This document shows, one piece after another, positions 2,995 through 44,547 of a stretch of DNA of 64,000 nucleotides. The stretch comes from Bacillota bacterium. Lineage in GTDB: Bacteria > Bacillota > Dethiobacteria > DTU022. A program made the translations under genes and the position numbers. The number at the start of each line of letters is the position of its first letter. Positions within the stretch are counted from its first letter, which is position 1. The notes under the pieces are model-generated. The model was not told the DNA's origin. It searched no databases and saw nothing but the letters and a program-made list of their open reading frames with translations. The stretch is from the NCBI GenBank assembly GCA_034189085.1, contig JAXHVH010000004.1, positions 21,821 through 85,820 on the forward strand, read 5' to 3'.

Positions 2995-4437
2995 TTATTT
3001 TATCCCCGGATACTTTTCGCGCAGCTTTTTCTCCAAATCCTCGCTAAAACCGGGCGTCTGATGTTCAGCCAAAATACGCCGGGCCTCTTCGTGGGCTCTG
3101 GTGAAAGTGTTTTTACAGCCTGCTTCTTCCCATACGGTGCGCTGCTGCCTGTCGGCAAGCTTGGGGAAATAGAATTCGCTGCGCACGTGTTCCACGGTAT
3201 GCGGCTGATCCAGGAAATGGCCGCCGGGACCGATTTCGGCAATAATATCGGTAGCCAGGGTTTCTTTGTTTACCTCGACGCCTTTTACCGCTCTCAGGGC
3301 CATACCTACCGAATCATTGTCGACGACCATTTTTTCGTATGATAGGGTGGTGCAGAATTCTAACAGGCCGAATGCATCGTGAATGTAGTTGCAGCCCGAT
3401 AGGGCGACGACCATAGCCGTATTGGCGCTTTCATAACCGGCCTGGGCGTCCACCACTTTTGAGTCTGACATACCACCTGTTCCGTAAATCGGGATCTTGT
3501 AATACTGAGCCATCTGGGCGCAGCCGGCATTGATGAGAGCCGATTCTATACTGCCGGCCATGTATGTGCCTGTGCGCATATCCATGATGCTGGATGTGGA
3601 ACCGTAGAGGGTGGGGTTGCCCCGGTTAACCAGCTGGGCCAGAATTAAACCACCCAAAGATTCGGCATTGTTCAGGGCAATGGTCCCGGCCAGGGTGACC
3701 GGTGAGTTGGCACCGGCCAGCGGTTCGGAAGGAGTAGCGATGGGTAGGCTGCGTCTGGCTACTTCGATCAAGAAATCAGTGTAAGTTACTTCCATCAGCA
3801 GAGGGCTCATCATCAGGGTAATAAATGAAACAAAAGGCCGTTCCCTTAGTTTTTTGGCTCCTCCGGCGATATCTTCGGCCATTTTAATAACAGCTCGCAG
3901 CCCTTCCATGGTGTATATACCGCCCATTACATGTTTGGATGTATTGGCCAGGGCGTGGTAAAAGCGGTTTATGTCAACTTCTTCAGCAGGCACATCATTG
4001 GGATAGCAGTTGATGACAAAAAAAGCAATGTTATCAAGGGCATCGGTCATTTTGGCGAAGCCGGCTACATCCCTTACTTCGGTGCGCCGCTTTTTGCCTG
4101 TTTCCATGTCGAGCGTATTGAGAACCGTCCCTCCGGTTCCCAGGTGGACATTAGCCCCTTCCAGGAGGATGTCGTACTTTTCTTCCCGGCCGCATAGGAC
4201 TAAACTTGAGGGTGTAGAATCGACGGCATCCTCGATCATCGCCCGCGGAATCTTGACTATCCTGCTTTCATGATCGACGGCGGCGCCGCTGTCGGCAAAG
4301 ATCTGCCGGGCTTGCTCGTTATGCATCTTGATCCCTACTTCTTCCAGCAGGTAAACCGAAGCTTCGTGGACCGCTTTGACGTCAGCATCGCTGAAAACCT
4401 TGAAACTTCCTCCCTTGAAGTGCTTAAACATGATCAT
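2995..4437 (-). CDS. MttB-superfamily (trimethylamine methyltransferase family) non-pyrrolysine methyltransferase; putative quaternary amine (glycine betaine-type):corrinoid methyltransferase
   Basis: 480 aa continuous ORF with no in-frame TAG. Family motifs are present (GGxxT, PVTLAGT, AQ..NA, IHDAFGLLE, DQPHT). It is paralogous to the ORFs at 35969 and 43066. Confidence 0.8.
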   Translation of the reverse strand: MIMFKHFKGGSFKVFSDADVKAVHEASVYLLEEVGIKMHNEQARQIFADSGAAVDHESRIVKIPRAMIEDAVDSTPSSLVLCGREEKYDILLEGANVHLGTGGTVLNTLDMETGKKRRTEVRDVAGFAKMTDALDNIAFFVINCYPNDVPAEEVDINRFYHALANTSKHVMGGIYTMEGLRAVIKMAEDIAGGAKKLRERPFVSFITLMMSPLLMEVTYTDFLIEVARRSLPIATPSEPLAGANSPVTLAGTIALNNAESLGGLILAQLVNRGNPTLYGSTSSIMDMRTGTYMAGSIESALINAGCAQMAQYYKIPIYGTGGMSDSKVVDAQAGYESANTAMVVALSGCNYIHDAFGLLEFCTTLSYEKMVVDNDSVGMALRAVKGVEVNKETLATDIIAEIGPGGHFLDQPHTVEHVRSEFYFPKLADRQQRTVWEEAGCKNTFTRAHEEARRILAEHQTPGFSEDLEKKLREKYPGIK

Positions 4438-6225: not shown

Positions 6226-6239
6226 AAATAAAATTGAAT

Positions 6240-6400
6240 ATTCTATTCGGGTGTCCCCTGTGGATGAAAAGGGAAACCGGTGCAAGTCCGGTGCGATCAC
6301 GTCACTGTAAGCACAAGCCAAATCCAGCAAGGCCACTGGTGAAAGCCGGGAAGGCGGAAGAGGCAATGAGTGTAAGCCAGGAAACCTGCCCGAATAACGC
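6240..6400 (+). ncRNA. Cobalamin (AdoCbl) riboswitch aptamer
   Basis: Conserved core AAAGGGAAACCGGTGCAAGTCCGGTGC...CACTGTAAGC...GTAAGCCAGGAAACCTGCCCGAAT. P1 pairs ATTCGGG with CCCGAAT. The B12 box and the GCCACTG-like elements are present. Confidence 0.8.
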
Positions 6401-6441
6401 GTAGCATTTTCCCCTTCGTGTGAAAGGGCTGGTTACTCATG

Positions 6442-6768: not shown

Positions 6769-7302
6769 TTGATGGAAAAAGGATATGTGCAAATTTATAC
6801 CGGCGACGGAAAAGGGAAAACCACTGCTGCCCTGGGACTGGGATTGAGAGCGGTTGGCAGTGGGCTCAGAGTGATCATGTTTCAATTTTTGAAAGGTTCG
6901 CCAAGCGGGGAATTAAAGAGTGTTACCATGCTGGGGGAAAATTTTGAGATTATTCGCCTTGCAGAAAGCAAAAAATTTTTTTGGACGATGAACGAGCAGG
7001 AAAAAAATGAATTGAAAAAGAACATGAAGGGTGAACTTGACCGGGTGCGGGAAGTACTTACCGGGGAAAAATATGATATTTTGATCCTGGACGAAATCAT
7101 GGCGGCAATCCATGGTGGATTACTATCAGTGGAAGATGTCTGCGTCCTGATTGATGCTCGGCCCCCCGGCATGGAAATGGTTTTAACCGGTCGAAGTACC
7201 CCGAATAAGCTTATCGAACGGGCTGATCTGGTAACCGAAATGCACTGTATCAAACACTACATTAACGAGAGTGTCTATGCCAGGGTTGGTATAGAGAAGT
7301 AA
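6769..7302 (+). CDS. cobO: Cob(I)yrinic acid a,c-diamide / corrinoid adenosyltransferase (CobO/BtuR type)
   Basis: 177 aa. The P-loop-like IYTGDGKGKTTAALGLGLRA is diagnostic of CobA/CobO. It lies downstream of the cobalamin riboswitch. Confidence 0.85.
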   Translation: MMEKGYVQIYTGDGKGKTTAALGLGLRAVGSGLRVIMFQFLKGSPSGELKSVTMLGENFEIIRLAESKKFFWTMNEQEKNELKKNMKGELDRVREVLTGEKYDILILDEIMAAIHGGLLSVEDVCVLIDARPPGMEMVLTGRSTPNKLIERADLVTEMHCIKHYINESVYARVGIEK

Positions 7303-16033: not shown

Positions 16034-16220
16034 AATTCCGGTGCAAAGACCTGCAGCCATCTGTTCTCTACTGTGGGCAGATGGCTTTTTTATGGATGCC
16101 TTGTAATTGTTGCCTAGCCTCTTGTTTATTACAGGTAGAACATGTTAATATGTATGGGCGATATGAGAAAAAATGGCGGATGAATTATAGATAAGTACTG
16201 TATCCGAGAGGGGTATTTAG

Positions 16221-17561: not shown

Positions 17562-17612
17562 GGTTGCTTCTTTTTATAGCTACAGCGATCTGGAAAGGAG
17601 CTTGAACGAACA

Positions 17613-25655: not shown

Positions 25656-25951
25656 CAGGATTCTCCCAACTTAAACATAAGTTTGTCTTAATCCGATTAT
25701 TCGCCGTCCGGCCGGGATTTCCTGTTGTCAATTCTATGCCTGTTTCTGGTAAAAAGGAGGTCTCTGTATTTTTGAAAAGCCTGTCCCGGTAAAGGAAATA
25801 ATCGGTCTTATGGCGAATATGGACACTGTCCGGTGAGGCTTTGACTGCTTTAGAGAAAAAGAAGAAAAGATGGTTGTTTGCAGGCGAATATTTCGGAATA
25901 ACAGACAAGCTTTATTGGCGGAGTTGTCCAAAAACAGAGGAGGTAGTGGTT

Positions 25952-26989
25952 ATGCGAAAGGGATGTCCCTACGGCACTCATCGGGTTATTGAACCCGCAG
26001 GCTTGCTGCCCCAGCCAGCCTGGAAAATCGACAATGACATGGAGATTTATGACAACGAAGTATTAATTGATGTGGAAGTGTTGAATATTGACTCAGCCAG
26101 CTTTACCCAGATTGAAAAGGAGGCAGGCGGTGAGGAAGAGAAAGTTAAAGAGATAATAACTGGCATAGTAAAGGAACGTGGGAAACATCATAACCCGGTA
26201 ACCGGTTCGGGGGGGATGCTCATCGGGCGAGTGGAAAAGATTGGCCCAGCCTGGAAAGGGAAGGTTCCCCTGCAGGAGGGAGACAGGCTGGCTACCCTGG
26301 TTTCCCTTTCGCTTACTCCTCTGCGTATTGATGGAATTAAAAAGATTCACAAGGATATTGACCAGGTGGAAATTGACGGCAAAGCAATTCTCTTTGAAAG
26401 CGGCATTTTTGCCGTCCTGCCTGAAGATCTGCCGGAAACCCTTTCCCTGGCGGTTCTGGACGTGGCCGGTGCAGCTGCCCAGACAGCTAAACTGGTTCGG
26501 CCAGGTGACAGGGTAGTGGTGATCGGAGCCGGTGGAAAGTCTGGATTGCTCTGTTTGCATGAGGCCAGGAAAAGAGCGGGTATTACAGGGAAGGTAATCG
26601 GGATTGCACCGAGAGAAAAAAGTAAAAAACGGGCTGAATCAACCGGCTACTGTGATGTGGTGCTCATGGCTGATGCTTCTAATGCACTGGATGTGATGAA
26701 CCAGGTCAAAGAAGTGACCGGTGGGGACATGGCCGACGTAACTATAAACTGTGTAAATATACCGAATACGGAACTTTCTTCTATCCTGGCCACACGCGAC
26801 TGTGGAACGGTTTATTTCTTCAGCATGGCTACCAGTTTCACCGCCGCTGCCCTGGGAGCCGAAGGGGTGGGCAAAGATGTAACTATGATTATTGGCAACG
26901 GTTATACGCGAGATCATGCGGCGATTTCTCTCAATATCATGAGAGAAAGCCCCGTCCTGCGGAATATATTCGAAGAACTATATACCTGA
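25952..26989 (+). CDS. kdd: L-erythro-3,5-diaminohexanoate dehydrogenase-like
   Basis: 345 aa from the ATG at 25952 (GAGGAGG upstream). The N-terminus MRKGCPYGTHRVIEPAGLLPQPAWKI and the Rossmann motif VVVIGAGGKSG are Kdd-like. Genomic context is kal/kce. Confidence 0.55.
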   Translation: MRKGCPYGTHRVIEPAGLLPQPAWKIDNDMEIYDNEVLIDVEVLNIDSASFTQIEKEAGGEEEKVKEIITGIVKERGKHHNPVTGSGGMLIGRVEKIGPAWKGKVPLQEGDRLATLVSLSLTPLRIDGIKKIHKDIDQVEIDGKAILFESGIFAVLPEDLPETLSLAVLDVAGAAAQTAKLVRPGDRVVVIGAGGKSGLLCLHEARKRAGITGKVIGIAPREKSKKRAESTGYCDVVLMADASNALDVMNQVKEVTGGDMADVTINCVNIPNTELSSILATRDCGTVYFFSMATSFTAAALGAEGVGKDVTMIIGNGYTRDHAAISLNIMRESPVLRNIFEELYT

Positions 26990-27014
26990 GCAACAGGGAA
27001 AGGATGATTTTAAG

Positions 27015-28265
27015 TTGGATCGTAAACCGAAATTAAACCTGGAAAAATCACTGGCTATGTTTGAAGAAGCACAGCGTATCTCACCCGGTGGGGTAATGGG
27101 TATCAGACGTCCCTATAATTTTGTGGAAGGAGAATACCCCATCTTTCTGACTCACGGCTATGGCGGTCACATTGTCGATGTGGACGGCAATGACTACATT
27201 GATATGCTTTGTGCCTACGGTCCGATTATCCTCGGCTATAACGAACCGGAGATAAACCGGGCGGTTAAGGAACAGATGGATAAGGGGTTCTGTTTTTCGC
27301 TGGTTCAACCGGTGCAGAATGAATTGATCAAGCGACTGATCAGAATCGTTCCTTCAGCAGAAATGGCCCTGCTGGTGAAAACCGGCTCGGATGCTACGGG
27401 GGTGGCAGTTCGTGTTGCCCGCGGTTATACCGGGAAAGATAAAATTTTACGCTGTGGTTATCATGGCTGGCATGACTGGTGTGTCGAGGTGGCTGGAGGA
27501 GTGCCGAAAGAAATCCAGGATTTGACCCTGGAATTTCCCTACGGTGATCTCGATGCTCTCGAAAAAATGTTGCAGGAAAACAAAGGTGAGGTAGCCGGAA
27601 TCATCATCACTCCCGTGGGACACCCCCTGGCCAAGCCAATTATTGCTCCTCCAGAGGGCTATCTGGCCGGTGTCAGAAAGCTGGCCGATCAATATGACTG
27701 TGTCCTGATCTTCGATGAAATTCGTACCGGTTTCCGAGTAGCCATGGGCGGAGCCCAGGAACGCTACGGCGTAATTCCCGATCTAACAGCTATCGGTAAG
27801 GCAATGGCCAACGGTTACTCAATCAGCGCCTGTGTGGGCAAGGTGGAAATTATGAAAACAGCCGAAAAGAAAGTTTTCATTAGTTCAACCTTTTTCCCCA
27901 ACAGCCTGGAGATGGTCGCAGCGATGAAGTGCCTGGATATATTGGAGCGGGAAAAGGTAATCGATGCCATATGGGAACGCGGCGAAGCATTTCTCGCTAA
28001 CCTGAAGAAGATTGTTGACCAAAGTGGGGTCCCGGCCACGGTATCCGGCATTCCGCCAATGCCTTTTCTCACCTTCGATAAAGTCGATAATATTTACCAG
28101 GAAAGAAGGACCCGTTTTTATACTGAAACTATCAGGCGAGGCCTCTTTATCCAACCTTACCATCACTGGTATATTGCCTACCGTCACACTGCGGAAGATT
28201 TACAGTACGCCCTTGACACAATTGAGGAAGCGTTAGCAATAGTATCCGGGGAATATCCGGCCTGA
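27015..28265 (+). CDS. Class-III (GSA-aminomutase-like) PLP aminotransferase; candidate 3-aminobutyryl-CoA aminotransferase (Kat-like)
   Basis: 416 aa. The family is GSA-aminomutase-like, with the Lys-containing region IGKAMANGYS. Its position is between kdd and kal. Confidence 0.55.
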   Translation: MDRKPKLNLEKSLAMFEEAQRISPGGVMGIRRPYNFVEGEYPIFLTHGYGGHIVDVDGNDYIDMLCAYGPIILGYNEPEINRAVKEQMDKGFCFSLVQPVQNELIKRLIRIVPSAEMALLVKTGSDATGVAVRVARGYTGKDKILRCGYHGWHDWCVEVAGGVPKEIQDLTLEFPYGDLDALEKMLQENKGEVAGIIITPVGHPLAKPIIAPPEGYLAGVRKLADQYDCVLIFDEIRTGFRVAMGGAQERYGVIPDLTAIGKAMANGYSISACVGKVEIMKTAEKKVFISSTFFPNSLEMVAAMKCLDILEREKVIDAIWERGEAFLANLKKIVDQSGVPATVSGIPPMPFLTFDKVDNIYQERRTRFYTETIRRGLFIQPYHHWYIAYRHTAEDLQYALDTIEEALAIVSGEYPA

Positions 28266-28327
28266 TGGGCGATTAATAATCGTCTAAAAAGGCTGTAAGA
28301 AAAATCTTCCGCTAAGGAGATGGGAAA

Positions 28328-28744
28328 ATGACCGAACCGAAAAAGCTGATGCTGCGCGTCCGCATAAGTGCCCATGATGTACACTATGGCGGCGGCCTCG
28401 TTGATGGAGCCCTGGTTATAAAGCTATTCGGCGATGTGGCGACAGAGCTGCTTATTCGTCATGACGGTGATGAAGGGCTGTTTGCCGCTTATGACATGAT
28501 TGAATTCAAAGCCCAGCTCTGTGCCGGTGATTTCCTTGAAATCTGGGGATGGATCGATCGTGTAGGCAGAACTTCGCGGCACATGCAGTTTGAAGCTTAT
28601 AAAGTTATTACCAATGCTGAAATGGATGACTGCCCGTCTGCCTGTAATATGCTTCCCGATCCTCTCCTGGTTGCCCGGGCCAGCGGGACCTGTGTGGTTC
28701 CCAGGCCCCTGCAGAGGGGACCGCAGGATCCTGATTTTGCGTGA
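28328..28744 (+). CDS. kal: Hot-dog fold protein, 3-aminobutyryl-CoA ammonia-lyase-like
   Basis: About 100-aa hot-dog core, roughly 130-aa protein size, and a position directly 5' of kce. The last ~40 aa (MDDCPSACNMLPDP...PQDPDFA) are low-complexity and atypical. Confidence 0.5.
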   Translation: MTEPKKLMLRVRISAHDVHYGGGLVDGALVIKLFGDVATELLIRHDGDEGLFAAYDMIEFKAQLCAGDFLEIWGWIDRVGRTSRHMQFEAYKVITNAEMDDCPSACNMLPDPLLVARASGTCVVPRPLQRGPQDPDFA

Positions 28745-28762
28745 GAAAGGGGATGAGAGATC

Positions 28763-29572
28763 ATGGACAAGTTGATTATTACAGCTGCTTTAACCGGAGC
28801 CGAGGTTACACGTGAGCATAATCAAAATCTGCCCATCACCCCGGAAGAAATAGCTGCAGAAGCATATCGTTGCTGTCAGGCCGGTGCTTCACTAATTCAC
28901 CTGCACGTGCGTAATGAAGACGAAACACCGACCCAGTCAAGAGAAGTTTATCAGGAAACAATCTCTTTAATAAAAGAAAAGTGTGGCCTAATTGTTCAGG
29001 TTTCCACCGGCGGAGCGGTGGGAATGAGCGCTGAAGAGCGCCTGCAGCCGATCTATCTTAAACCGGAAATGGCCACCCTTTCCACCGGGTCTGTCAACTT
29101 TGGTGACGATGTTTTTATCAATCCTCCCGCTTACCTGGAAAAGTTTGCCCGGGTGATGCAGGAGCACAATGTTAAACCGGAGATTGAAGTGTTTGAGGTT
29201 GGGATGATCAGCAATGCCTTGCAGCTGGCTAAAAAAGGGCTGCTTTCCGAGCCACTCCATTTTGATTTCGTGATGGGCGTGCCTGGTGGTATTCCCGCTT
29301 CGCTCAAAAATTTGCTTCACCTTGTGGAAAGTATTCCATCAGGGAGCACCTGGACTGTAGCCGGTATGGGGCGGCATGAACTGCCGCTGGGTACTGCGGC
29401 TATCATCCTTGGCGGTCATGTTAGGGTCGGTTTTGAGGACAATGTTTTTTATGAAAAAGGAGTTCTAGCTGAAAGCAATGCCCAGCTGGTTGAGCGGATT
29501 GCCCGGGTAGCCGCTATTCACAGCCGCCCTGTTGCTGAGCCTGATGAAGCGAGGCTAATTTTAGGTTTGTAG
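28763..29572 (+). CDS. kce: 3-keto-5-aminohexanoate cleavage enzyme (BKACE/DUF849 family)
   Basis: 269 aa. The N-terminus MDKLIITAALTGAE...HLHVR is typical of the DUF849 TIM-barrel. Confidence 0.7.
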   Translation: MDKLIITAALTGAEVTREHNQNLPITPEEIAAEAYRCCQAGASLIHLHVRNEDETPTQSREVYQETISLIKEKCGLIVQVSTGGAVGMSAEERLQPIYLKPEMATLSTGSVNFGDDVFINPPAYLEKFARVMQEHNVKPEIEVFEVGMISNALQLAKKGLLSEPLHFDFVMGVPGGIPASLKNLLHLVESIPSGSTWTVAGMGRHELPLGTAAIILGGHVRVGFEDNVFYEKGVLAESNAQLVERIARVAAIHSRPVAEPDEARLILGL

Positions 29573-35968: not shown

Positions 35969-37492
35969 TTGAGCGAAAGAGGAGTAATTGTTCAGAAACC
36001 CTATGCTCGTTTAAGTCCTGAAGAGATTGAAACGATCGACAGGGCTTCCATGGCCATTTTAAAAAATCCCGGGATCCTCTGCTATCACGAGGAAAGTGTG
36101 TCACTTCTGGAAAAAGCCGGGGCTCAGGCCAGGGCTACCCGGGAAGGCGAGCATAATGCCTGGTGGGTAAGTATACCGGAGAATGTGATCAGGGAAGCGC
36201 TTGAATCGGTTCCATCCAGGGTTGTTCTCGGTGCTCGTGATCCGGAAAACAGGGTGGTCCTTGACGCTGAAGGATACAGGGTGCATTTTGGAACCGGATC
36301 GGAAACCAATTACTGGCTGGAAGTAAAACCGGAAACATTTCAGTCAAAAGTGGACAGCCATGAAAGGGTGTTCCCCTTAATGGAGAAAAAGAGGGGCAAT
36401 GTTGAATATCTGTGCCGCTCGGCCAATCTTGCCGAACAGCTTGAGAATCTTGATTTTTTTATCCGTAATGTTAATGTCCAGGACGATGATATAACTATCG
36501 ACAACAAAGACGTCAATGTGTTTTTTGCTTCCCTCGACCATATTACAAAGCCGGTAATTGGCGGAATAGCCGAGTTCGAAAGGCTGAATGATGTAGTCAG
36601 GATGGCGGAAATAATCGTTGGAGGAAAAGAGGAACTGGTCGAAAACCCGGTTGTTTCCTTCATTACCAGTGTTATTAAGAGCCCTCTCCAGGTGGTGGCT
36701 GAAACTGCCGAAAAGTTGATCGCCATAGCCAGGTTGAAACTACCAGTGGTAATTTCCACTTCACCCCAGGGGGGCTCTACAGCTCCCATCGACGACATGG
36801 GCATGGTTGCCCAGGTAAATGCGGAGGCCTTGGTCGGCATAACCATTAACCAGCTGGCCAACCCCGGTGCGCCCGTTATTTACGGCGCTGTACCGGTCAG
36901 GGCAAGGATGGATGATCTGAATGATATGTATGGAGTACCTGAATTTTGTCATTATAATATAGCCTGTGCCCAGATGGCCCGCCATTACAGGGTACCCTGT
37001 TATTCCACGGCTGGAGTTGGCGATGCCAGGGTCCCCGGTATTCAAGCGTCTGTAGAAAAAACCTTTACTCATACCGTGGTTCCCATGGCTGCACCGGGAC
37101 TGGTCCATTATTCCTTTGGCCTGCTGGATAAAACCCAGATTTTCTGTCCGGAACAGGCTTTGCTGGACAACCAGCAGATCGGGATGGCTAAATTTCTCTA
37201 CCGTGAAAGCGGGATCAATGATGAGAGAATTGAAAAAACCAGGGTAATGGTGGAAGAAGTAATGCATAGCCCCTACCGGATGTATGCCCGCTATGCTCGG
37301 AAAATGTTGAGGCGGGGTGAAATTTTCCCCGGGTTTCCCTTTGAAGGAGAAAGTGAAGACCAGGATCAAACTCTTCTGCTGGCCCATGAAAAATTTCAGG
37401 AGCTTGAAAAAAACGAACCCAGGCATTTGCCTCCTGAGGTAAGGGATAAAATATTTAAAGAAATACCGGGATTGCTGCCACGCCTGAAGTAA
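35969..37492 (+). CDS. MttB-superfamily non-pyrrolysine methyltransferase (quaternary amine:corrinoid methyltransferase candidate)
   Basis: 507 aa, no in-frame stop. Family motifs are present (GTGSE, PVVISTSPQGGSTAP, NAEALVGIT). TTG start with AAGGAGG upstream. A corrinoid protein gene lies 62 nt downstream. Confidence 0.8.
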   Translation: MSERGVIVQKPYARLSPEEIETIDRASMAILKNPGILCYHEESVSLLEKAGAQARATREGEHNAWWVSIPENVIREALESVPSRVVLGARDPENRVVLDAEGYRVHFGTGSETNYWLEVKPETFQSKVDSHERVFPLMEKKRGNVEYLCRSANLAEQLENLDFFIRNVNVQDDDITIDNKDVNVFFASLDHITKPVIGGIAEFERLNDVVRMAEIIVGGKEELVENPVVSFITSVIKSPLQVVAETAEKLIAIARLKLPVVISTSPQGGSTAPIDDMGMVAQVNAEALVGITINQLANPGAPVIYGAVPVRARMDDLNDMYGVPEFCHYNIACAQMARHYRVPCYSTAGVGDARVPGIQASVEKTFTHTVVPMAAPGLVHYSFGLLDKTQIFCPEQALLDNQQIGMAKFLYRESGINDERIEKTRVMVEEVMHSPYRMYARYARKMLRRGEIFPGFPFEGESEDQDQTLLLAHEKFQELEKNEPRHLPPEVRDKIFKEIPGLLPRLK

Positions 37493-37554
37493 TGAAAACG
37501 CGACCCTGCGTACTAACTTAATAACTTATTGCTTTTCTGCCACGGGAGGGGAAT

Positions 37555-38244
37555 TTGATGGAGGAAAATTTAATCGGGAGAATAGCCGAGAATGTTTTAC
37601 AGGGACGCCGCAACAGGGATGATGAAGGAATAGAGGAAGATTATACTGGAGAGCCGGGGGTTGCTGAACTGGTTAAAGAAGCGCTAAAGAGCGGTGTTCC
37701 CACTGATAAAATTTTGCTTGAAGGTCTGAGCGCCGGGATGGAGAAAGTTGGTCAAAAATATGAAACCGGCGAGTATTTCATTCCCGATATGCTGACGGCT
37801 GCTGAAGCGGTAGAAGCGGGCATGGCCATTATGGAGCCTCACCTGATCAAAGATGGAGTGAAAGAAGTAAAAGGTAAGGTGGTCATGGCTACGGTGGAGA
37901 AGGATCTTCATGATATAGGGAAGAATCTGGTTTCTATAATGCTGAAAGGGGCCGGATTTACGGTCGTTGATCTCGGAGTTGATGTCCCGGCCGATAGAAT
38001 TGTCGAAGTGGCAGAAGAAGAAGGAGCCGGCTTGATTGGTCTCTCAGCTCTTTTGAATACGACTATGACAGGTATGGGAAAAGTGATTGCCAGACTGGAG
38101 CAGAAGGAATTGCGTAAAAAAATTAAAGTTATGATCGGCGGGGCTCCTACTTCGGAAGATTATGCCCGTGAAATCGGGGCCGATGCTTATGGGAAAGATG
38201 CTTTTGCCGCCATCCGCGAGGCTGAAGCATTGCTTAAAAAGTAG
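37555..38244 (+). CDS. Corrinoid (cobalamin-binding) protein, MtgC/MttC-like
   Basis: N-terminal helical cap plus a B12-binding Rossmann domain with the DxHxxG motif (DLHDIGK). Confidence 0.8.
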   Translation: MMEENLIGRIAENVLQGRRNRDDEGIEEDYTGEPGVAELVKEALKSGVPTDKILLEGLSAGMEKVGQKYETGEYFIPDMLTAAEAVEAGMAIMEPHLIKDGVKEVKGKVVMATVEKDLHDIGKNLVSIMLKGAGFTVVDLGVDVPADRIVEVAEEEGAGLIGLSALLNTTMTGMGKVIARLEQKELRKKIKVMIGGAPTSEDYAREIGADAYGKDAFAAIREAEALLKK

Positions 38245-38736
38245 ATTCTTGAAATGACGGGAGAAGGCGTTTTTCAGCCTGAAGAGGATTTATTGGCCGT
38301 ATTTATGTCCTAAATGCTGATTACATGTAAATAACGTTCAATTTACGGTATTTTGCGAATTTACTGTTATAATTAATATTTGTGTCTCTACTCTGGTTAT
38401 GAAATAATAACTATAGTTTGCAGTTACAATTAAAAGAACATTTAAACTGAATATATGTAAAGCTGGTTGTACTGCCTGCACATTTCATTTTCATCAACGA
38501 ACACTTCAAAAAAAACTGTCGCCTGAAGTTTATCACATTTTGATCAGGATTAGTTTATCTTAATTTAATATTAACCAATTATTGACAAGGAGGGTGAGTG
38601 CTTATCAATGATCCAACCAGTGAGTAATGTTATTGATTTTGCCAGATCGCTTGGTGCAGAATTTTTATTCTCAAATGAAATTCAGATCCTCTCTATCTTC
38701 AGCAGGGTCGTTGTTTACCTGCAGAGGAGAGGCGAG

Positions 38737-39348
38737 ATGGTCTGGGAGTTGTTGCTGGAGCATCTGTGGCTGGTCATAATATCGGTTGTCATTGCTGTGG
38801 TCGTGTCCGTGGTTGTGGGTGTTCTAATAAGTTATTATTCCAACGCGGCCTTAACCGTATTGACTGTCTGTCAGATTTTGATGACCATTCCCAGCATGGC
38901 CATGCTGGGTTTTATGGTTCCCCTGTTTGGCATCGGTTTTACCACAGGAGTTGTTGCCTTGATTCTTTACAGCCTGTTGCCCATTGTGCGTAATACTTAT
39001 ACGGGAATTAAAGAAATCAGCCCGGCGGTGGTTGAATCGGCTATCGGCATGGGAATGACTGAATGGAGGATACTGACAAAGATTAAACTGCCCCTGGCCA
39101 GGCCGGTTATCATGGCCGGAATTCGAACCGCTACAGTTATGATCACCGGTATTGCCGCTATTGCCGCCTACGTTGGGGCAGGAGGTCTCGGTGAGCTGAT
39201 TTTCCAGGGGATTTCCCGTTCCAGTGAACCGATGATTATTGTCGGGGCTCTCGGGGTTTCCATTATTGCCCTGGCTTTTGATTTTATCCTGTCCTGGGGT
39301 GAACAGCGGCTGGCTGCAATTGGTAAAACCAGGGAGGTAGAAGGATGA
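38737..39348 (+). CDS. Glycine betaine/choline-type ABC transporter permease (OpuCB-like)
   Basis: ELLLEHLWLV...QTIPSMAMLGF parallels the OpuCB N-terminus. GAGGAGAGG lies upstream of the ATG at 38737. The ORF-track start at 38608 is an alternative. Confidence 0.75.
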   Translation: MVWELLLEHLWLVIISVVIAVVVSVVVGVLISYYSNAALTVLTVCQILMTIPSMAMLGFMVPLFGIGFTTGVVALILYSLLPIVRNTYTGIKEISPAVVESAIGMGMTEWRILTKIKLPLARPVIMAGIRTATVMITGIAAIAAYVGAGGLGELIFQGISRSSEPMIIVGALGVSIIALAFDFILSWGEQRLAAIGKTREVEG

Positions 39349-40457
39349 TAAAATTAGAAAACGTGACCAAAAAATTTCCCGGCATGTCGATCCCTGCCGT
39401 TAAAGACCTGAACCTTGAAGTTAAAGAGGGGGATGTCTGTATTCTGGTTGGGCCTTCAGGCTGCGGGAAAACGACGACCATGAAGATGATCAATCGTATT
39501 TATGAACCTACCAGCGGGGAGATCTATATCAACGGGCAGAACACCCTGGAGATGGATCCCATCAAGCTGCGTCTTGATATTGGCTATGTTATTCAGGAGA
39601 TTGGTCTCTTCCCTCACATGACAATTGCCGAAAATGTGGCCACGGTGCCAATGGAAAAGAAATGGCCGAAAGATAAAATCAATAAAAAGGTCGATGAAAT
39701 GATGACCCTTGTCGGGCTGAATCCGGAGGAACACAAAAATCGCTATCCTTCTGCTTTGAGCGGCGGTCAGCGTCAGAGGGTCGGTGTGGCCCGAGCAATG
39801 GCTTCCGATCCGCCAATCATGTTGATGGATGAGCCTTTCGGAGCTGTTGACCCTATTACCAGGGCCCGCCTGCAGAATGAGTTTTTGCGGATCCAGGAAA
39901 GAGTAGGTAAAACAATTGTTTTTGTCACCCACGATATTGATGAGGCGATCAAAATGGGTGATGCCATCGCTGTGATGAGGGAAGGGCAGCTGATTCAGCA
40001 TGCCACACCCAGTGATCTGTTGAGTGCTCCGGCCAATGAATTTGTCGAGAACCTGGTTGGTAGGAACAGGTCGATTAAGCGGCTGCACCTGATCCGCATT
40101 CGTGAAATACTGGATTCAGTTAACAGGATTGATCCGGCCACTGTTGATATGTCAGTTGACGATATCAAGAAACGGATAGATGAAAGCGATATCCGTTCGG
40201 TGATGGTCGTTGACCGCGACAACAAGCTTAAGGGCATTATCGGGGTCAACGATTTAAAGAAAAAAGCGGGAGAAGTGGCCTCTGACTACGTGCAGGATGT
40301 ATCTGATTCCATCACTGACGATGCTACCTTGAACGATGCACTCTCGGTGATGCTGGAGTGCGGTGAAGGTTATGTGGCCGTGGTAAACGAAGACGACCAG
40401 TACCAGGGAACAATCACCCTGGGTGACCTGCTCCATGTTGTAAAGGAGGATGATTAA
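39345..40457 (+). CDS. Glycine betaine/osmoprotectant ABC transporter ATP-binding protein with tandem C-terminal CBS domains (OpuCA/OpuAA-like)
   Basis: Walker A GPSGCGKTT, signature LSGGQRQR, Walker B IMLMDEP, and a C-terminal CBS pair. Confidence 0.85.
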   Translation: MIKLENVTKKFPGMSIPAVKDLNLEVKEGDVCILVGPSGCGKTTTMKMINRIYEPTSGEIYINGQNTLEMDPIKLRLDIGYVIQEIGLFPHMTIAENVATVPMEKKWPKDKINKKVDEMMTLVGLNPEEHKNRYPSALSGGQRQRVGVARAMASDPPIMLMDEPFGAVDPITRARLQNEFLRIQERVGKTIVFVTHDIDEAIKMGDAIAVMREGQLIQHATPSDLLSAPANEFVENLVGRNRSIKRLHLIRIREILDSVNRIDPATVDMSVDDIKKRIDESDIRSVMVVDRDNKLKGIIGVNDLKKKAGEVASDYVQDVSDSITDDATLNDALSVMLECGEGYVAVVNEDDQYQGTITLGDLLHVVKEDD

Positions 40458-41178
40458 CATGCTTCGCAAACTGTGGAAGTGGGTTATCATTCCTCTCCTG
40501 CTGATTGTCATCGGTGTGGTTATCGTTGTCTATGCAGTCAATAATCCAACCGATTCTCTGGTAGCCAGGGCCCTTACTTACAGCAATATATTCAAGGCGC
40601 TACGTGAGCATCTGGGATTAATGCTGGTGTCCATGTTCGGGGCAATAATTGTTGGTGTGCTGGCAGGTATTTTGCTTTCCCGCCCCAAGCTCTATTATAT
40701 CGGGCGCGGTGTGGAAAATGTGGTTAACGTGGGGCAGACCATTCCCAGCCTGGCTATCCTGGCTCTTTTCTTTACCATTCTGGGGTTGGGTTTCAGGGTT
40801 GCTGTTTTTGCCCTGTTTCTCTATTCTATTTTACCCATCCTGCGAAATACATTTGCCGGTCTTACCAGTGTTGACGCAAGTATTATTGAATCGGCCAGGG
40901 GTATGGGGTTGAGCCCACGGCGGGTTTTAACCCGCATCGAGCTACCCATTGCTTACCCCATTATCATAGCAGGCATTCGCACCGCAGTGGTCATCAATGT
41001 TGGTGCGGCCACCCTGGCTACTTTCATTGGGGGCGGCGGTTTCGGCGATTTAATTGTTACAGGCCTTGCCGTGCGTCGAGATATGGTTATATTTACAGGT
41101 GCCGGATTGGCTGCCTTGACGGCAATTATTCTCGACTATGTGGTTGGACAGGTAGAAGAACATCTTGTTAGGTGGTGA
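40450..41178 (+). CDS. Glycine betaine-type ABC transporter permease (OpuCD-like)
   Basis: Paralog of the 38737 permease (GQTIPSLAILALF...). Overlaps the ATPase stop. Confidence 0.8.
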   Translation: MINMLRKLWKWVIIPLLLIVIGVVIVVYAVNNPTDSLVARALTYSNIFKALREHLGLMLVSMFGAIIVGVLAGILLSRPKLYYIGRGVENVVNVGQTIPSLAILALFFTILGLGFRVAVFALFLYSILPILRNTFAGLTSVDASIIESARGMGLSPRRVLTRIELPIAYPIIIAGIRTAVVINVGAATLATFIGGGGFGDLIVTGLAVRRDMVIFTGAGLAALTAIILDYVVGQVEEHLVRW

Positions 41179-41254
41179 TAAGAAAAAAGAGTTTTACAAA
41201 TCTGGTTATGTTGGGGCTGTCAAAGAATTACAAAAAAAGGGGGATATTTTTTCT

Positions 41255-42274
41255 ATGAGTAAAAATGTTATGTGGAAAGTAATGGCTTTAATTTTGATCC
41301 TGGCGGTGCCGTTTTTTATGCTGGGATGTGACGGTGGAGCCGAAGAAGGTGCCGAAAACGGCGAAGAAGTAGTCGAAAATGGAGAGGAAAATGGTGAAGA
41401 AACAGCTTCCGGAGGCGGATGGATTTTTGCCACCGACCATGAATATTCTATCCGTGACGACGGCTACATTGGCCTGACCGAGCTGTACGGTTTTGAATTC
41501 GACGATGTAGCGGTTATGGACCTTGGTATTACCTACACCGCTCTTCGCGATGGTGAAGTGCCTGTAGCTATGGGCTTTGCCACTGATGGGCGCATTGCCG
41601 CTTTTGACCTTGTCAACCTGGTGGACGACAAGCATTTCCACCCGGTTTACAACTGTGCCCCGGTTGTCCGCCAGGAAACATTGGAGATGTACCCGGAGAT
41701 TGCCGACATCCTGAACCCTATTGCGGCAGCGCTTGATGCTGAAACGATGTCGACCATGAACATGACGGTAGATATTGAAGAATTTTTAGCTTCCGAAGTA
41801 GCAGAAGAATGGCTTCTTGAACAGGGTTTTATCGGGGATGAACCGGCAGAAATGGGCTCGGGTGATCCAGTAGTAGTGGGTTCGAAAGAATTCACCGAAC
41901 AGCTGATCCTTGGTCAGATTACTATCCTGGCCCTTGAATATAACGGTATACCAACAGTTGATCAGACCGGTCTTGGTGGCACCGTCGTTGTTAGGGAAGC
42001 TCAAGAGGGCGGAGAAGTCGACGTTTACTGGGAGTATACAGGAACTGCTTTAATTTCGCACCTTGGATTTGACGAAGCAATAACCGATCCGGAAGAATGC
42101 TACGCTGTAGTCAGTGAAACAGACCTGGAACAGAATGGCCTGGTCTGGTTGGACTACACTCCTTTTGACAATACCTATACCTTGATGATGCGCAAGGCAG
42201 ATGCTGATGAGCTCGGTATTGTTTCAATCAGTGATCTGGCTGAGACCATTAATTCGGGAGTACCTGCTCCTTAA
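41255..42274 (+). CDS. Glycine betaine/quaternary amine substrate-binding lipoprotein (OpuAC/OpuCC family)
   Basis: Signal peptide plus lipobox FFMLGC, then a Gly/Glu-rich linker, then an OpuAC-like fold. The ATG at 41255 with a AAAGGGGGAT RBS is preferred over the ORF-track start at 41165. Confidence 0.8.
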   Translation: MSKNVMWKVMALILILAVPFFMLGCDGGAEEGAENGEEVVENGEENGEETASGGGWIFATDHEYSIRDDGYIGLTELYGFEFDDVAVMDLGITYTALRDGEVPVAMGFATDGRIAAFDLVNLVDDKHFHPVYNCAPVVRQETLEMYPEIADILNPIAAALDAETMSTMNMTVDIEEFLASEVAEEWLLEQGFIGDEPAEMGSGDPVVVGSKEFTEQLILGQITILALEYNGIPTVDQTGLGGTVVVREAQEGGEVDVYWEYTGTALISHLGFDEAITDPEECYAVVSETDLEQNGLVWLDYTPFDNTYTLMMRKADADELGIVSISDLAETINSGVPAP

Positions 42275-42388
42275 TTAGCAAATTGATAGTTTAAAACGAT
42301 AAGGCTGTTCAAATAATCAGACTAGGAAGGGCAGCTCCTTATAATAAAAGACCGGATCTGAAAGGACCGGAATGTTGAATAAACATTA

Positions 42389-42430
42389 GGGCAAGCAGGA
42401 ATAATATAAATCTTGCTTGCCCTTTTTTGT
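42389..42430 (+). terminator. Intrinsic terminator after substrate-binding protein gene
   Basis: Stem GGGCAAGCA/TGCTTGCCC (9 bp), a 16-nt loop, then TTTTTTGTTTT. Confidence 0.7.
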
Positions 42431-42517
42431 TTTACTGTTCACGACGGCGGAGAAATTCTTATTCATAGGCGCAATTTACTAAAACGGATATTGACATTCG
42501 GAAACGGAGGAATTAGT

Positions 42518-43015
42518 ATGGCTTTAATGGCAAAGGAGATTATGACCTGCCCGGTGATTACAGTCAAAGCCGATACACCGCTGAAAAAGACGGCAGAAAT
42601 CCTTGATGAAAATTCTTTTAGCGGTATGCCGGTTGTTGACGATGATGATCGGCTAATAGGAATCGTTTCGGAGACTGATATACTGCGTTATACTCAACAG
42701 ATCATTGGACAGCCTCTACGTGACCCGCATCAGGTTTTCACAAAGGGCAAGGAAGTGCTTCATGTAGATATAACCCACAGGGGTATTGAAGTAATAGAAC
42801 TGGTAGCTTCTACAACAGTGGAAACCCTGATGACCCGTGATGTCATTTCTGTGGACGGGGAAACCGCAATTAATGAAGTAACCAGACTGATGCACGAAAA
42901 CAGCATCAATCGTATCCCGGTGGTGGATAAAAGCAAAAGACTGCAGGGAATCATCACAAGGGCTGATATAATCAAGGCTATGGTCACAGATTGGCAGAAA
43001 ATCAGGGAGAATTAG
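42518..43015 (+). CDS. Stand-alone CBS-domain pair protein
   Basis: Two CBS motifs (ITVKADTPL...GMPVVDDDDRLIGIVSETDIL; ...INRIPVVDKSKRLQGIITRADII). GGAGG lies upstream of the ATG at 42518. Confidence 0.7.
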   Translation: MALMAKEIMTCPVITVKADTPLKKTAEILDENSFSGMPVVDDDDRLIGIVSETDILRYTQQIIGQPLRDPHQVFTKGKEVLHVDITHRGIEVIELVASTTVETLMTRDVISVDGETAINEVTRLMHENSINRIPVVDKSKRLQGIITRADIIKAMVTDWQKIREN

Positions 43016-43065
43016 CCTGGATTTGCATTGCCAGTAATTTAAGTTTGTTCTGGAGGTATTCAATA

Positions 43066-44547
43066 ATGCGCAGGCCGATTTATGAAGGTGGGGGTTACAG
43101 GGTATTATCGGAAAAGGAAATAAGCCGCATTCATGAAACATCAATCAGAGTCTTGAGAGAAGTAGGATTTGAGATAAACTATCCACCGGCCCTTGAGCTG
43201 TTCGAGAAAAGCGGAGCAAGGGTCGATTATGATCTAAACAGGGTTTATGTTCCCCGGGAACTGGTTTCCCGGGCGATCAAGCAGGCTCCGTCTGAATTTG
43301 TCTTTTGCGGAAGGCAGGAAGGGAAAAGCATCACTGTTGGCGGGAAACAGGTCCATTTCGGTAGCGGAGGCCTGGCCCTTTATGTCCTGGACCTTGAGCG
43401 CAATAAAAGGCCAGGGACGATCCGCGACGTGGCCGACCTGGCCAGGCTGGCCGATAAACTTGAAAATCTCGATTTTTTTATCATTCCTGTTTATCCACAT
43501 GATATCAATATCGATACCGTTGATGTCAATACAAAATATCAGGCCTTGCTCAACACCAGTAAGCCGGTGATGGGTGGTATTTTCAACAAGCAGGGTGTTG
43601 AAGATATTATTGCGATTGCTTCTATCATAGCGGGTGGGCTTGATAAACTGCAAAAACGTCCTTTTATTGGTTTTATTTCTTCCATCACCAGTCCGCTTAA
43701 AATCAGTCCGGAACACGCGGAATATATAATGATGATAGCCCGTTACGGTCTTCCGCTGGCAACTTCAACTGCTCCGACTGCGGGAGCGACGGCTCCTGTC
43801 ACCCTGGCCGGCACCCTGGTGCAGCAGAATGCGGAGGCGCTGATGGGTGTGATCTTAACCCAGTTAGTCAATCCGGGAACACCGGTTCTTTACAGTGCTG
43901 TCCCGGTAACCATGGATATGCGGACCATGTCATTTCTCATGGGCAGCATCGAATCGGGGTTGATGAATGCTGCCATTACCCAGATGGCCCAGTATTACCG
44001 GTTGCCCTGTTACCTGACAGTAGGAGCAACTGATTCCAAGCTGCCCGATGCCCAGGCTGCTCATGAAGGCGCTACAACGGCCATGCTGGCGGCGCTGGCC
44101 GGCGGGAATTACATTCATGAAGCATTCGGTATGCTTGATGGGGCAATGACTGTATCTTACGCCCAGTATGTGATCGATAATGACATCGTTGGCAGCTGTC
44201 TGCGCACCCTGCGGGGTATCGACATAAATCGGGATACTCTGGCCTTTGATATCATTGCCAAAGTTGGTCCGGGAGGCAACTACCTTGGTGAAGAACATAC
44301 TGTAAAATATATGCGTACTGAAAGTTACATGCCCCGGGCCAGTGATCGTCAGCAGTACCAACTGTGGTTTGATGCGGGAAGCAAAGACAGCTGGAAGCGG
44401 GCTGAAGAAGTGGCTGCCCAGTTGCTCCAGGAGCCGGTGGAGCCGATTATCCCGCCGGAGGTTGACGCCAGGATACGGGAAAAATATTCTGACCTGGTCA
44501 GGGTTGAAAGGAATGAAGATCTGAACACCGGGACCGGTTTAAGTTAG
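43066..44547 (+). CDS. MttB-superfamily non-pyrrolysine methyltransferase (glycine betaine-type candidate), linked to betaine importer operon
   Basis: 493 aa from the ATG at 43066 (GGAGG 9 nt upstream). It is closely paralogous to the 2995-4437 protein (GSGG, PVTLAGT, NAEALMGV, IHEAFGMLD). Confidence 0.8.
   Translation: MRRPIYEGGGYRVLSEKEISRIHETSIRVLREVGFEINYPPALELFEKSGARVDYDLNRVYVPRELVSRAIKQAPSEFVFCGRQEGKSITVGGKQVHFGSGGLALYVLDLERNKRPGTIRDVADLARLADKLENLDFFIIPVYPHDINIDTVDVNTKYQALLNTSKPVMGGIFNKQGVEDIIAIASIIAGGLDKLQKRPFIGFISSITSPLKISPEHAEYIMMIARYGLPLATSTAPTAGATAPVTLAGTLVQQNAEALMGVILTQLVNPGTPVLYSAVPVTMDMRTMSFLMGSIESGLMNAAITQMAQYYRLPCYLTVGATDSKLPDAQAAHEGATTAMLAALAGGNYIHEAFGMLDGAMTVSYAQYVIDNDIVGSCLRTLRGIDINRDTLAFDIIAKVGPGGNYLGEEHTVKYMRTESYMPRASDRQQYQLWFDAGSKDSWKRAEEVAAQLLQEPVEPIIPPEVDARIREKYSDLVRVERNEDLNTGTGLS

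Follow-up and report, generated by a model that had tools for sequence, protein, structure and literature searches.

Among the closest known systems is the Desulfitobacterium hafniense MtgB/MtgC/MtgA glycine betaine:tetrahydrofolate (THF) methyltransferase (PDB 2qne and 9yce), which, like the locus analyzed here, combines a non-pyrrolysine (non-Pyl) MT1 with a neighboring DxHxxG corrinoid protein gene. Clusters of a transporter, MttB and a corrinoid protein that are induced by glycine betaine have been described (PMC6855144, PMC9768040 and PMC12478193). These include opuD-mtgB-mtgC of Methanolobus vulcani B1d (PMC6855144) and the nine-gene cluster of 'Ca. Formimonas warabiya' DCMF, with three MttB, one MTII, two corrinoid proteins and two transporters (PMC9768040), both of which share the overall logic of our locus. 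In Eubacterium limosum, MtcB, MtpB, MtyB and MthB (carnitine, proline betaine, gamma-butyrobetaine and phosphocholine) are likewise non-Pyl paralogs that use corrinoid proteins and have diversified by quaternary amine. Ruegeria pomeroyi MtgBCD(E) is a split methionine synthase/glycine betaine demethylase with RamA and DUF1638, and the kit it shares with the Desulfobacterota relatives of our first paralog comprises MttB, a corrinoid protein, a pterin-binding methyltransferase, a MetH-activation-like protein and RamA/DUF1638. On the transport side, the OpuB/OpuC (Bacillus subtilis), OsmF/YehZYXW (Escherichia coli) and AfProX importers have the same two permeases, CBS-bearing ATPase and separate OpuAC-family binding protein as the importer found here.

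The locus (35969..44547) lies in a 64-kb window, the whole stretch of DNA that was analyzed, from an uncultured haloalkaliphilic Bacillota bacterium, as judged by the source of its nearest relatives (Mono Lake and Kulunda soda-lake metagenome-assembled genomes (MAGs) labeled Syntrophomonadaceae or Bacillota). We read this island, with a probability of roughly 0.6, as a methyl-harvesting locus that pairs an osmolyte-type importer with B12-dependent demethylases, import of a quaternary amine being followed by its corrinoid-dependent demethylation. Systems of this kind are known, and by sequence the three MttB paralogs of the window appear to sit in uncharacterized branches. Compared to the D. 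hafniense system, the island has no adjacent MT2, carries an ABC-type transporter and has all four MtgB site residues Y97/R312/H348/F356 replaced. The adjoining transporter of M. vulcani is annotated opuD, whereas the island encodes a four-gene importer with a CBS-ATPase; the MTII of DCMF is missing from the island, and the CBS-pair partner protein of the island is missing from both of those clusters. Of the R. pomeroyi kit, the window has MT1 and the corrinoid protein only. The same gene order recurs in ~30 independent assemblies of soda-lake and Mono Lake Bacillota MAGs, which indicates that the island is real and under selection rather than a chance arrangement; synteny is retained in 34 loci at protein identities of 57-95%.

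Profile searches (Pfam and NCBIfam) recovered every feature that an initial annotation had listed, each in its place. The genes of the island are on the plus strand and form three transcription units. The first begins with MttB-1 (35969..37492), a non-Pyl MttB-superfamily methyltransferase of clade I and the presumed MT1, whose reading frame has no in-frame stop. Its PF06253 match (198 bits) spans only profile positions 29-409 of 500, which marks it as divergent, and it scores only 116 bits each against D. hafniense MtgB (DhMtgB) and Pyl-MttB. Clade I MttB occurs in 494 stretches from species-representative genomes, and its signature, S-Y-V-Y-T, is invariant in 81 sequences. The cognate corrinoid protein (37555..38244, likely starting at ATG 37558), with a cap helix (PF02607) and Rossmann B12 domain (PF02310), begins 62 nt 3′ of MttB-1 and carries its DxHxxG motif as DLHDIG; its TIGR02370 score of 194 bits is slightly below the cut-off of 215. 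Of 85 loci with clade I MttB, 80 have a corrinoid protein nearby, mostly directly downstream.

An AT-rich spacer (38245..38607), read as noncoding from the sequence, divides this unit from the transporter unit, which matches the initial annotation of an OpuC-type importer with a CBS-ATPase. It consists of permease 1 (38608..39348, PF00528; OpuCB/ProW-like, with ProW and choline-permease models as its best NCBIfam matches), an OpuCA/ProV-type ATPase with a C-terminal tandem CBS pair (39345..40457, PF00005 and PF00571; TIGR01186 proV 359 bits, above the cut-off of 327), permease 2 (40450..41178, PF00528) and a lipoprotein substrate-binding protein with an OpuAC domain (41255..42274). The most likely start of the latter, within an open reading frame (ORF) of 41165-42274, is ATG 41255, which yields a lipoprotein signal with LGC at its end. 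Two permeases, a CBS-ATPase and a separate binding protein make up an OpuB/OpuC/OsmF-type architecture.

By sequence, the binding protein belongs to the OpuBC/OpuCC/AfProX/OsmF subfamily and not to that of B. subtilis OpuAC (2b4l), the textbook case of a circularly permuted ProX-type betaine binder, to which it is only 14% identical. It is itself circularly permuted, with the C-lobe segment first and the N-lobe segment second, the chain order of OpuAC. Its own orthologs and every close PDB relative, including those of the OpuB/OpuC, OsmF and AfProX group, have the reverse order; the permuted topology is of recent origin, having arisen among orthologs ~80% identical. Per lobe, the protein is 28-38% identical to EgtU, OpuBC-derived sensors, AfProX and OsmF. 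The AfProX pocket residues Y63, Y111, R149, Y190 and Y214 (PMC10087775) have their counterparts in Y261, Y308, R67, F108 and Y132, all invariant, as are the Lys of GSK and the Thr of YTGT. As this aromatic box (with Phe for Y190) and the Arg149 equivalent, both common to the OpuB/OpuC/OsmF/AfProX group, are retained, a carboxylate-bearing betaine is a possible ligand of the transporter.

The transporter unit is closed by an intrinsic terminator (42388..42429, plus strand) with a 13-bp stem and U-run (ΔG -24.3 kcal/mol, z = -6.1, none of 200 shuffles equally stable), which a simple pattern scan missed because of its long loop. The third unit follows with a stand-alone CBS-pair protein (42518..43015; PF00571 twice, 116 bits), for which ATG 42518 is the most likely start, giving 165 aa as in relatives; GGAGG and a promoter-like TTGACA-17-TAGTAT precede this ATG. 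Terminator and promoter-like site together define the unit boundaries. The unit ends with MttB-2 (43066..44547), a non-Pyl MttB of clade III (signature G-Y-A-E-A; PF06253 398 bits; TIGR02369 453 bits, under the cut-off of 525). Among the loci fetched, clade III occurs only in soda-lake Bacillota. The CBS-pair protein was found in 18 syntenic loci, each time directly upstream of clade III MttB, and these include L026, L030 and L035, where the ABC genes are displaced or missing. It is therefore better viewed as a partner of MttB-2 than as an accessory of the transporter.

The third MttB paralog that the initial annotation alluded to was located outside the island, on the minus strand (2995..4437). 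MttB-3 is a non-Pyl MttB of clade II (signature G-Y-M-D-C; PF06253 387 bits; TIGR02369 500 bits, again under 525) and clusters with the ~487-aa MttB of Desulfobacterota and Nitrospirota loci, where clade II is immediately beside clade I: the ~487-aa gene lies just upstream of a Pterin_bind gene, which is followed directly by clade I MttB. As expected from the initial annotation, no Pterin_bind/MtrH or RACo domain was detected by Pfam in the scanned window ORFs of at least 150 aa, a set that comprised all but a few ORFs that were <170 aa or overlapped scanned genes. MT2 and the activase are likewise absent within 10 kb in every close syntenic relative. In other phyla, these functions adjoin the same MttB clades. 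The 52 clade I loci from other lineages contain a corrinoid protein (46), a second MttB (37), a Pterin_bind MT2 (36), a MetH-activation-domain-like protein (25), an OpuAC binding protein (9), RamA (3) and DUF1638 (2). Their MT2 matches the methyl-THF:corrinoid methyltransferase model NF005719 (297 bits, cut-off 259), and relatives of MttB-1 in Desulfobacterota and Nitrospirota adjoin this enzyme, RamA/DUF1638 and OpuAC-type transporters. This linkage supports the uptake-plus-demethylation unit first proposed from the gene layout.

In the scheme that we favor, transporter and enzymes would be coupled. The aromatic box of the lipoprotein would capture a quaternary-ammonium (onium) osmolyte, which the ABC system would bring into the cell. 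An MttB paralog would hold the solute in its TIM-barrel pocket and pass a single N-methyl group on to the corrinoid protein's Co(I), and a methyl-THF:corrinoid methyltransferase with its gene elsewhere in the genome would transfer the methyl group from methyl-Co(III) to THF, with a RamA-type activase, its gene also elsewhere, rescuing oxidized Co(II). The three paralogs probably differ in their substrates or else handle consecutive products of demethylation.

Among osmolytes, glycine betaine dominates in such habitats, which favors a specific system of the MtgB/MtpB/MtcB/MtyB type for glycine betaine, proline betaine, carnitine or gamma-butyrobetaine, the substrates that had been proposed at first. 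Multi-MttB clusters induced by glycine betaine are also known (PMC9768040), and the AfProX-type Arg and aromatic box of the binding protein would suit such a ligand. The enzymes point elsewhere. D. hafniense MtgB is the top PDB sequence match for all three paralogs (116 bits for MttB-1 to 308 bits for MttB-2), with Pyl-MttB and Sinorhizobium meliloti 4yyc as further relatives; MttB-2 was aligned to 9yce and 7xcl. The MtgB site Y97/R312/H348/F356, required according to mutagenesis and a ligand-bound structure (PMC13080624), is replaced in ungapped alignment blocks by S/Y/Y/T in MttB-1, G/Y/E/A in MttB-2 and G/Y/D/C in MttB-3. Arg312 is reported to be conserved in all characterized non-Pyl members, all of which act on acidic substrates (Picking et al. 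2026, PMC13080624), including by that paper's statement MtcB, MtpB, MtyB and MthB; alphaproteobacterial 4yyc also retains Arg and His, unlike the window paralogs, which all have Tyr at the Arg312 position. H348E abolished MtgB activity, and the equivalent residue is Glu in MttB-2 and Asp in MttB-3. The carboxylate would then have to be held by residues other than the canonical Arg. Clade I offers two invariant extra arginines, R311 and R313, in the loop after strand 7, which are missing in MtgB and Pyl-MttB, whereas the alignment revealed no compensating arginines in clades II and III. A specific betaine system is hence rather unlikely, and the enzyme-side substrate does not appear recognizable as glycine betaine or another characterized acidic quaternary amine. 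Loss of the conserved Arg in all three paralogs also makes a function other than quaternary-amine demethylation possible.

OpuC-type importers with a CBS-ATPase are classic osmoprotectant uptake systems of halophiles, so the proximity of transporter and MttB genes could mirror shared osmotic regulation instead of a catabolic route. A plain salt-stress importer with functionally unrelated MttB neighbors would fit the haloalkaliphilic host, the transporter's own terminator and its distance of 364 nt from the upstream unit, as well as the position of the ABC genes upstream of MttB-1 in L026 and L030 and outside the locus in L035. We nevertheless regard it as unlikely, as the ABC genes remain inside the MttB cluster in ~20 related loci despite 15-40% protein divergence, OpuAC-family transporters independently occur beside these MttB clades in Desulfobacterota and Nitrospirota (9/52 loci) and experiments in other organisms have shown co-induction of transporter-MttB clusters. 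That the paralogs are true pyrrolysine-requiring trimethylamine methyltransferases has a negligible chance. Rfam PYLIS_3 has matches in both MttB-2 (54 bits) and MttB-3 (38.5 bits), the TIGR02369 scores of both are not far under the cut-off, and Pyl-MttB shares the Tyr at the Arg312 position. However, the PYLIS matches lie within homologous coding sequence, beginning exactly at the Pyl-equivalent codon, and so reflect gene homology rather than a recoding signal. No TIGR02369 score reached the cut-off, the window showed no pyl genes and, in agreement with the initial annotation, the requirement is refuted by three uninterrupted ORFs with sense codons and no UAG where Pyl334 aligns (Val in MttB-1, Ala in MttB-2 (GCA at 44026) and Met in MttB-3).

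Very improbable, too, is a system for biosynthesis or regulation of the osmolyte pool, in which a compatible solute would be made or interconverted through methylation of an amine by the corrinoid protein and MttB, with SAM-methyltransferase-like and AsnB-like genes taking part in relatives. To our knowledge, methylation of a tertiary amine from methyl-cobalamin is without precedent in the MttB family, and all characterized superfamily enzymes are reported to demethylate their substrates (PMC13080624 and PMC8604678). The window has neither accessory gene (tblastn with the L002 methyltransferase gave no match), yet its MttB and corrinoid genes are intact and conserved with those of relatives. 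In favor of this alternative, most relatives carry a ~416-aa class-I SAM-methyltransferase-like gene at the position of the spacer; of 85 related loci, 59 have it behind the corrinoid gene, and in 21 an AsnB-like amidotransferase gene comes next. MetK and AhcY, assigned by eye from the sequences, are close by in L041, L044 and L049, and the ~416-aa methyltransferase stands alone in the haloalkaliphile Natranaerobius thermophilus.

Every gene that the initial annotation had listed between 35969 and 44547 was recovered with Pfam and NCBIfam profiles. MttB-1, an MttB-family methyltransferase by Pfam/NCBIfam match (35969-37492, +), is followed after 62 nt by a corrinoid protein with B12-binding_2 and B12-binding domains (37555-38244, +), in which the DxHxxG motif reads DLHDIG. 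The importer genes then encode a BPD_transp_1 permease (38608-39348, +), an ABC ATPase with two CBS domains (39345-40457, +), a second BPD_transp_1 permease (40450-41178, +) and an OpuAC binding protein (41165-42274, +), which probably starts at ATG 41255 and carries the lipobox LGC. The terminator placed after the importer was confirmed as a 13-bp stem with a U-run at 42388-42429 (dG −24.3 kcal/mol, z = −6.1). It was located by sequence reading and folding; a simple terminator scan missed it and was uninformative (11 terminator-like sites vs 9.5 ± 3.8 expected), as was a simple promoter scan (19 promoter-like sites vs 14.5 ± 4.1 expected). The stand-alone CBS-pair gene probably starts at ATG 42518, downstream of GGAGG and a TTGACA-17-TAGTAT site, and precedes the second MttB of the island, MttB-2 (43066-44547, +). 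A third paralog, MttB-3 (2995-4437, −), lies 31 kb away from the island. In agreement with the absence noted initially, no Pterin_bind, MtrH or RACo domain was found in the window ORFs of at least 150 aa that were scanned, the few unscanned ones being too short for either enzyme. The set of MttB-type methyltransferase (MT1), corrinoid protein, methyl-THF:corrinoid methyltransferase (MT2) and reductive activase (RamA/RACo) is therefore incomplete in the window, with the last two missing.

The three paralogs belong to the MttB superfamily (PF06253/COG5598), with PF06253 scores of 198, 398 and 387 bits for MttB-1, MttB-2 and MttB-3 against a cut-off of 25. MttB-1 covers only profile positions 29-409 of 500, yet aligns over residues 12-495 to DhMtgB of Desulfitobacterium hafniense (9yce). 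The assignment of the paralogs as non-Pyl proteins held, as their ORFs are continuous without in-frame UAG, and Val, Ala and Met align with X334 of Pyl-MttB (7xcl). A pyrrolysine-dependent trimethylamine methyltransferase was accordingly rejected, none of the three passing the TIGR02369 cut-off of 525 bits (229, 453 and 500 bits). Rfam PYLIS_3, the family of mttB pyrrolysine insertion sequences, gave matches above its gathering score inside two of these genes, at 44026-44125 (+) in MttB-2 and 3372-3471 (−) in MttB-3. Both start with the Pyl-equivalent codon, GCA (Ala) in MttB-2, and lie in homologous coding sequence that contains no UAG. We thus rejected them as a sign of Pyl recoding; the PYLIS_3 model appears to score homologous coding sequence. 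Judged by sequence, the window paralogs are non-Pyl members of which none is recognizably MtgB, MtcB, MtpB, MtyB or MthB.

A pattern-based scan of species-representative genomes returned 494 stretches with an MttB-1 relative, of which the best 80 were kept as loci, and neighboring ORFs were clustered for all 85 loci compared. An alignment of 147 sequences, comprising 144 MttB ORFs from the window and the 85 related loci, the window MttB-3, DhMtgB and Pyl-MttB, was read at the Pyl position and at the MtgB substrate site, Y97, R312, H348 and F356, which was established by mutagenesis and a ligand-bound structure (PMC13080624). Three clades came out. Clade I, with MttB-1, reads S-Y-V-Y-T at the Y97, R312, Pyl, H348 and F356 positions and holds 81 sequences from Bacillota, Desulfobacterota, Nitrospirota and Dehalococcoidia; clade II, with MttB-3, reads G-Y-M-D-C (38 sequences); and clade III, with MttB-2, reads G-Y-T/A-E-A and was found in soda-lake Bacillota only (19 sequences). 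The MtgB site is thus replaced in all three paralogs, by S/Y/Y/T in MttB-1, G/Y/E/A in MttB-2 and G/Y/D/C in MttB-3, where the R312, H348 and F356 columns fall in gap-free blocks among the window paralogs and MtgB and agree with HMMER pairwise alignments, and the Y97 column is less sure for MttB-1 (T109 by HMMER vs S111 by MAFFT).

According to Picking et al., R312 is conserved in all characterized non-Pyl members and forms a salt bridge to acidic substrates, and MtgB activity is abolished by R312L and H348E (PMC13080624). Tyr occupies the R312 position in the three window paralogs and in all 138 clade I-III sequences, a residue that the window paralogs have in common with Pyl-MttB. The S. meliloti homolog 4yyc, in contrast, keeps Arg and His at the R312 and H348 positions, and MtcB, MtpB, MtyB and MthB are likewise set apart from the window paralogs by the conserved R312-equivalent Arg ascribed to them (PMC13080624). 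The substrates named initially (glycine betaine, proline betaine, carnitine and gamma-butyrobetaine) therefore find no support in the methyltransferase active sites. Two extra invariant arginines near the pocket (R311 and R313) are seen in clade I alone, so that clade may still act on an acidic substrate. Nothing specific on these MttB clades in soda-lake or sulfate-reducing bacteria was found in the literature searched; the speculation of one paper that MttB feeds HgcA was judged not relevant to this island.

Soda-lake MAGs from Mono Lake and Kulunda, labeled Bacillota or Syntrophomonadaceae, yielded the closest homologs, with identities of 94-95% for MttB-1 and 89% for the binding protein, whose closest homolog is annotated Firmicutes bacterium ML8_F2. 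Synteny extends over the whole neighborhood in about 30 independent assemblies, whose proteins are 57-95% identical, with the common order BKACE (beta-keto acid cleavage enzyme) cluster, radical SAM, MnmG, NadE, CDF transporter, MttB-1, corrinoid protein, ABC genes, CBS protein and MttB-2, and the island is therefore a conserved unit as opposed to genes that are neighbors by chance. Within 10 kb in this syntenic soda-lake group no MT2 or RACo/RamA was found; in other phyla, the same MttB clades have both as neighbors. Loci from outside the soda-lake group typically run MarR, a MetH-activation-domain-like protein, clade II MttB, a methyl-THF:corrinoid methyltransferase (NF005719, 297 bits vs cut-off 259), clade I MttB, corrinoid protein, a ~416-aa protein (hereafter the 416-aa protein) and an AsnB-like protein. 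RamA and DUF1638 adjoin these MttB clades in a few loci, and OpuAC-family ABC genes occur in 9 of the 52 loci outside the soda-lake group. Through association, this cross-phylum context provides the MT2 and activase that the window does not encode, and it ties these MttB clades to OpuAC-type transport in unrelated phyla; it is the main support for the uptake-plus-demethylation reading proposed initially.

Clades I and II are probably functionally linked. In Desulfobacterota and Nitrospirota, MttB-3 orthologs lie immediately 5' of the methyl-THF:corrinoid methyltransferase gene, which the clade I gene directly follows. We found no description of the MarR-to-AsnB-like operon in the literature searched. 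It is carried by L055, L056, L079 and further loci of Desulfobacterota/Nitrospirota, some of which instead have ProA and a GCS2-like ligase next.

A corrinoid protein is encoded near the clade I MttB in 80 of 85 loci, mostly directly downstream. That of the island combines the cap and Rossmann B12-binding domains of MtgC/MttC/MtbC-type corrinoid proteins (PF02607, 58 bits; PF02310, 101 bits), with DLHDIG, the S-x-L motif in GLSALL, and GG. Its scores fall below the cut-offs of TIGR02370 (194 vs 215) and of the MtgC models (188 vs 370 and 179 vs 310), and it is predicted to be a family member by domain content, not an MtgC equivalog. The CBS-pair protein had been suggested as a possible ligand-sensing accessory. 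Its gene lies directly 5' of a clade III MttB in L026, L030 and L035, related loci where the ABC genes lie elsewhere or outside the locus, and this adjacency makes the protein a partner of MttB-2, not of the importer.

The 416-aa protein, a class-I SAM-methyltransferase-like protein of the relatives, is encoded next after the corrinoid protein in 59 of 85 loci, across phyla. It has a GCGTGDG motif and a novel helical C-terminal half (L002:12243-13493; L001:12182-13489), and searches of NCBIfam and PDB sequences returned no match and no named family. Its AF2 model, although confident (pLDDT 91), retrieved only generic class-I small-molecule methyltransferases with Foldseek (TM 0.3-0.38). A Natranaerobius thermophilus homolog stands without an MttB or corrinoid neighbor. 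The gene is missing from the window and from the related loci L005, L006, L007 and L024; the spacer at 38245-38607 is AT-rich and non-coding, and tblastn detected no remnant in the window.

The importer has the OpuB/OpuC/OsmF architecture of two permeases, a tandem-CBS ATPase (TIGR01186 proV above cut-off) and a separate OpuAC-family binding protein (PF04069, 181 bits), bearing out the OpuC-type assignment. By sequence the binding protein groups with EgtU, Thermoanaerobacter OpuBC (the iAChSnFR and iNicSnFR scaffold), OpuCC, OsmF and AfProX. The AfProX pocket residues Y63, Y111, R149, Y190 and Y214 (PMC10087775) correspond to Y261, Y308, R67, F108 and Y132, which are invariant in 21 permuted homologs, in a mapping made on sequences and not on superposed coordinates. 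Y261, Y308, F108 and Y132 would form an aromatic box for a trimethylammonium head group. Also invariant in the homologs are the GSK Lys and the YTGT Thr, which would correspond to further carboxylate-binding residues of AfProX. A betaine-type ligand is thus plausible for the transporter, in tension with the MttB enzyme signatures.

The chain order of the binding protein differs from that of OpuBC, OpuCC, OsmF and AfProX. A signal peptide and lipobox are followed by an acidic linker, the segment GWIFATDHEY...EQGFI, the linker GDEPAEMGSGD and the segment PVVVGSKEF...INSGVPAP; the syntenic orthologs of L001 and L002, like all 27 PDB relatives, have the segments in reverse order. The window protein is therefore circularly permuted. 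Of the best 120 database homologs, the normal order is seen in 95, the permuted order in 20 and a full tandem fusion in 2, and L023 encodes two tandem binding-protein genes. Permuted forms fall in at least three places of an order-normalized NJ tree, with at least two junction types, and at least five independent assemblies show the junctions. Permuted clades a and b resemble each other in linker length and both end in GVPAP at the C-terminus, so this scattered occurrence may stem from gene conversion between paralogs as an alternative to independent permutation events. The homologs P0128, P0208 and P0213, with orders CNC and NCN, at first resembled permutation intermediates but were rejected as such, because each is probably a full NCNC fusion whose gene call is truncated; P0128 begins inside the N-half. 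Deeply diverged betaine binders are known to differ by circular permutation (PMC2395249); a permutation between ~80%-identical orthologs seems to be undescribed in the literature searched.

The general uptake-plus-demethylation interpretation is supported. In the best model, an onium osmolyte would be imported by the ABC system, after which the MttB paralogs would transfer its methyl group to the corrinoid protein, with the MT2 and activase encoded elsewhere in the genome. The M. vulcani opuD-mtgB-mtgC cluster (PMC6855144), the 'Ca. Formimonas warabiya' cluster (PMC9768040) and the R. pomeroyi cluster (PMC12478193) follow the same logic. We tentatively propose, at a probability of roughly 0.3, a joint reading in which clades I-III act on one or more onium substrates used by no characterized MttB member, clades I and II belong to a cross-phylum operon with the structurally novel 416-aa protein, lost in the window lineage, and an AsnB-like amidotransferase, and the importer binding protein was recently and naturally permuted (at least two junction types, with tandem fusions in related lineages). 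Clades I-III might use a quaternary amine that is non-acidic or amidated, or else the products of successive demethylations.

Quaternary-amine demethylation under anaerobic conditions keeps osmolyte carbon from trimethylamine and methane. To our knowledge, substrates are known for only a handful among thousands of MttB-superfamily proteins. The island points to three well-conserved clades whose pockets are unlike those of every characterized member at residues proven to bind substrate, one clade reaching about 500 species-representative genomes in four phyla, and the co-encoded binding protein is a ready-made ligand probe that makes substrate discovery directly testable. The permuted protein offers a clean natural circular permutation among near-identical orthologs, useful for protein evolution and, because its closest solved relatives are the iAChSnFR and iNicSnFR scaffolds, for biosensor engineering. 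We consider the island of moderate value on these two counts.

Elsewhere in the window, a cobalamin riboswitch (110 bits; 6232-6407, +) lies 5' of a CobA/CobO/BtuR corrinoid adenosyltransferase gene (6769-7302, +), a few kb from MttB-3, which is consistent with a corrinoid-dependent lifestyle. Besides BKACE itself (365 bits), the BKACE cluster (25841-29572, +) comprises genes for a zinc-type dehydrogenase-like protein and a class-III aminotransferase, and a small ORF. Its synteny with the island holds in all soda-lake relatives, whose dehydrogenase carries a KDD_N domain, and the cluster may represent a lysine/beta-lysine-type or carnitine-type pathway. At 22150-25655 (−), a DEAD/Helicase_C protein with an MrfA zinc-binding domain adjoins an RNase_H_2/exonuclease-like protein, the pair resembling the MrfA/MrfB DNA-repair proteins. 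Genes for a ZnuABC-type metal importer and a Fur-family regulator precede a group (15098-19343, +) in which a protein with a CusF-like copper-binding domain is followed by two large NosD/right-handed beta-helix proteins.
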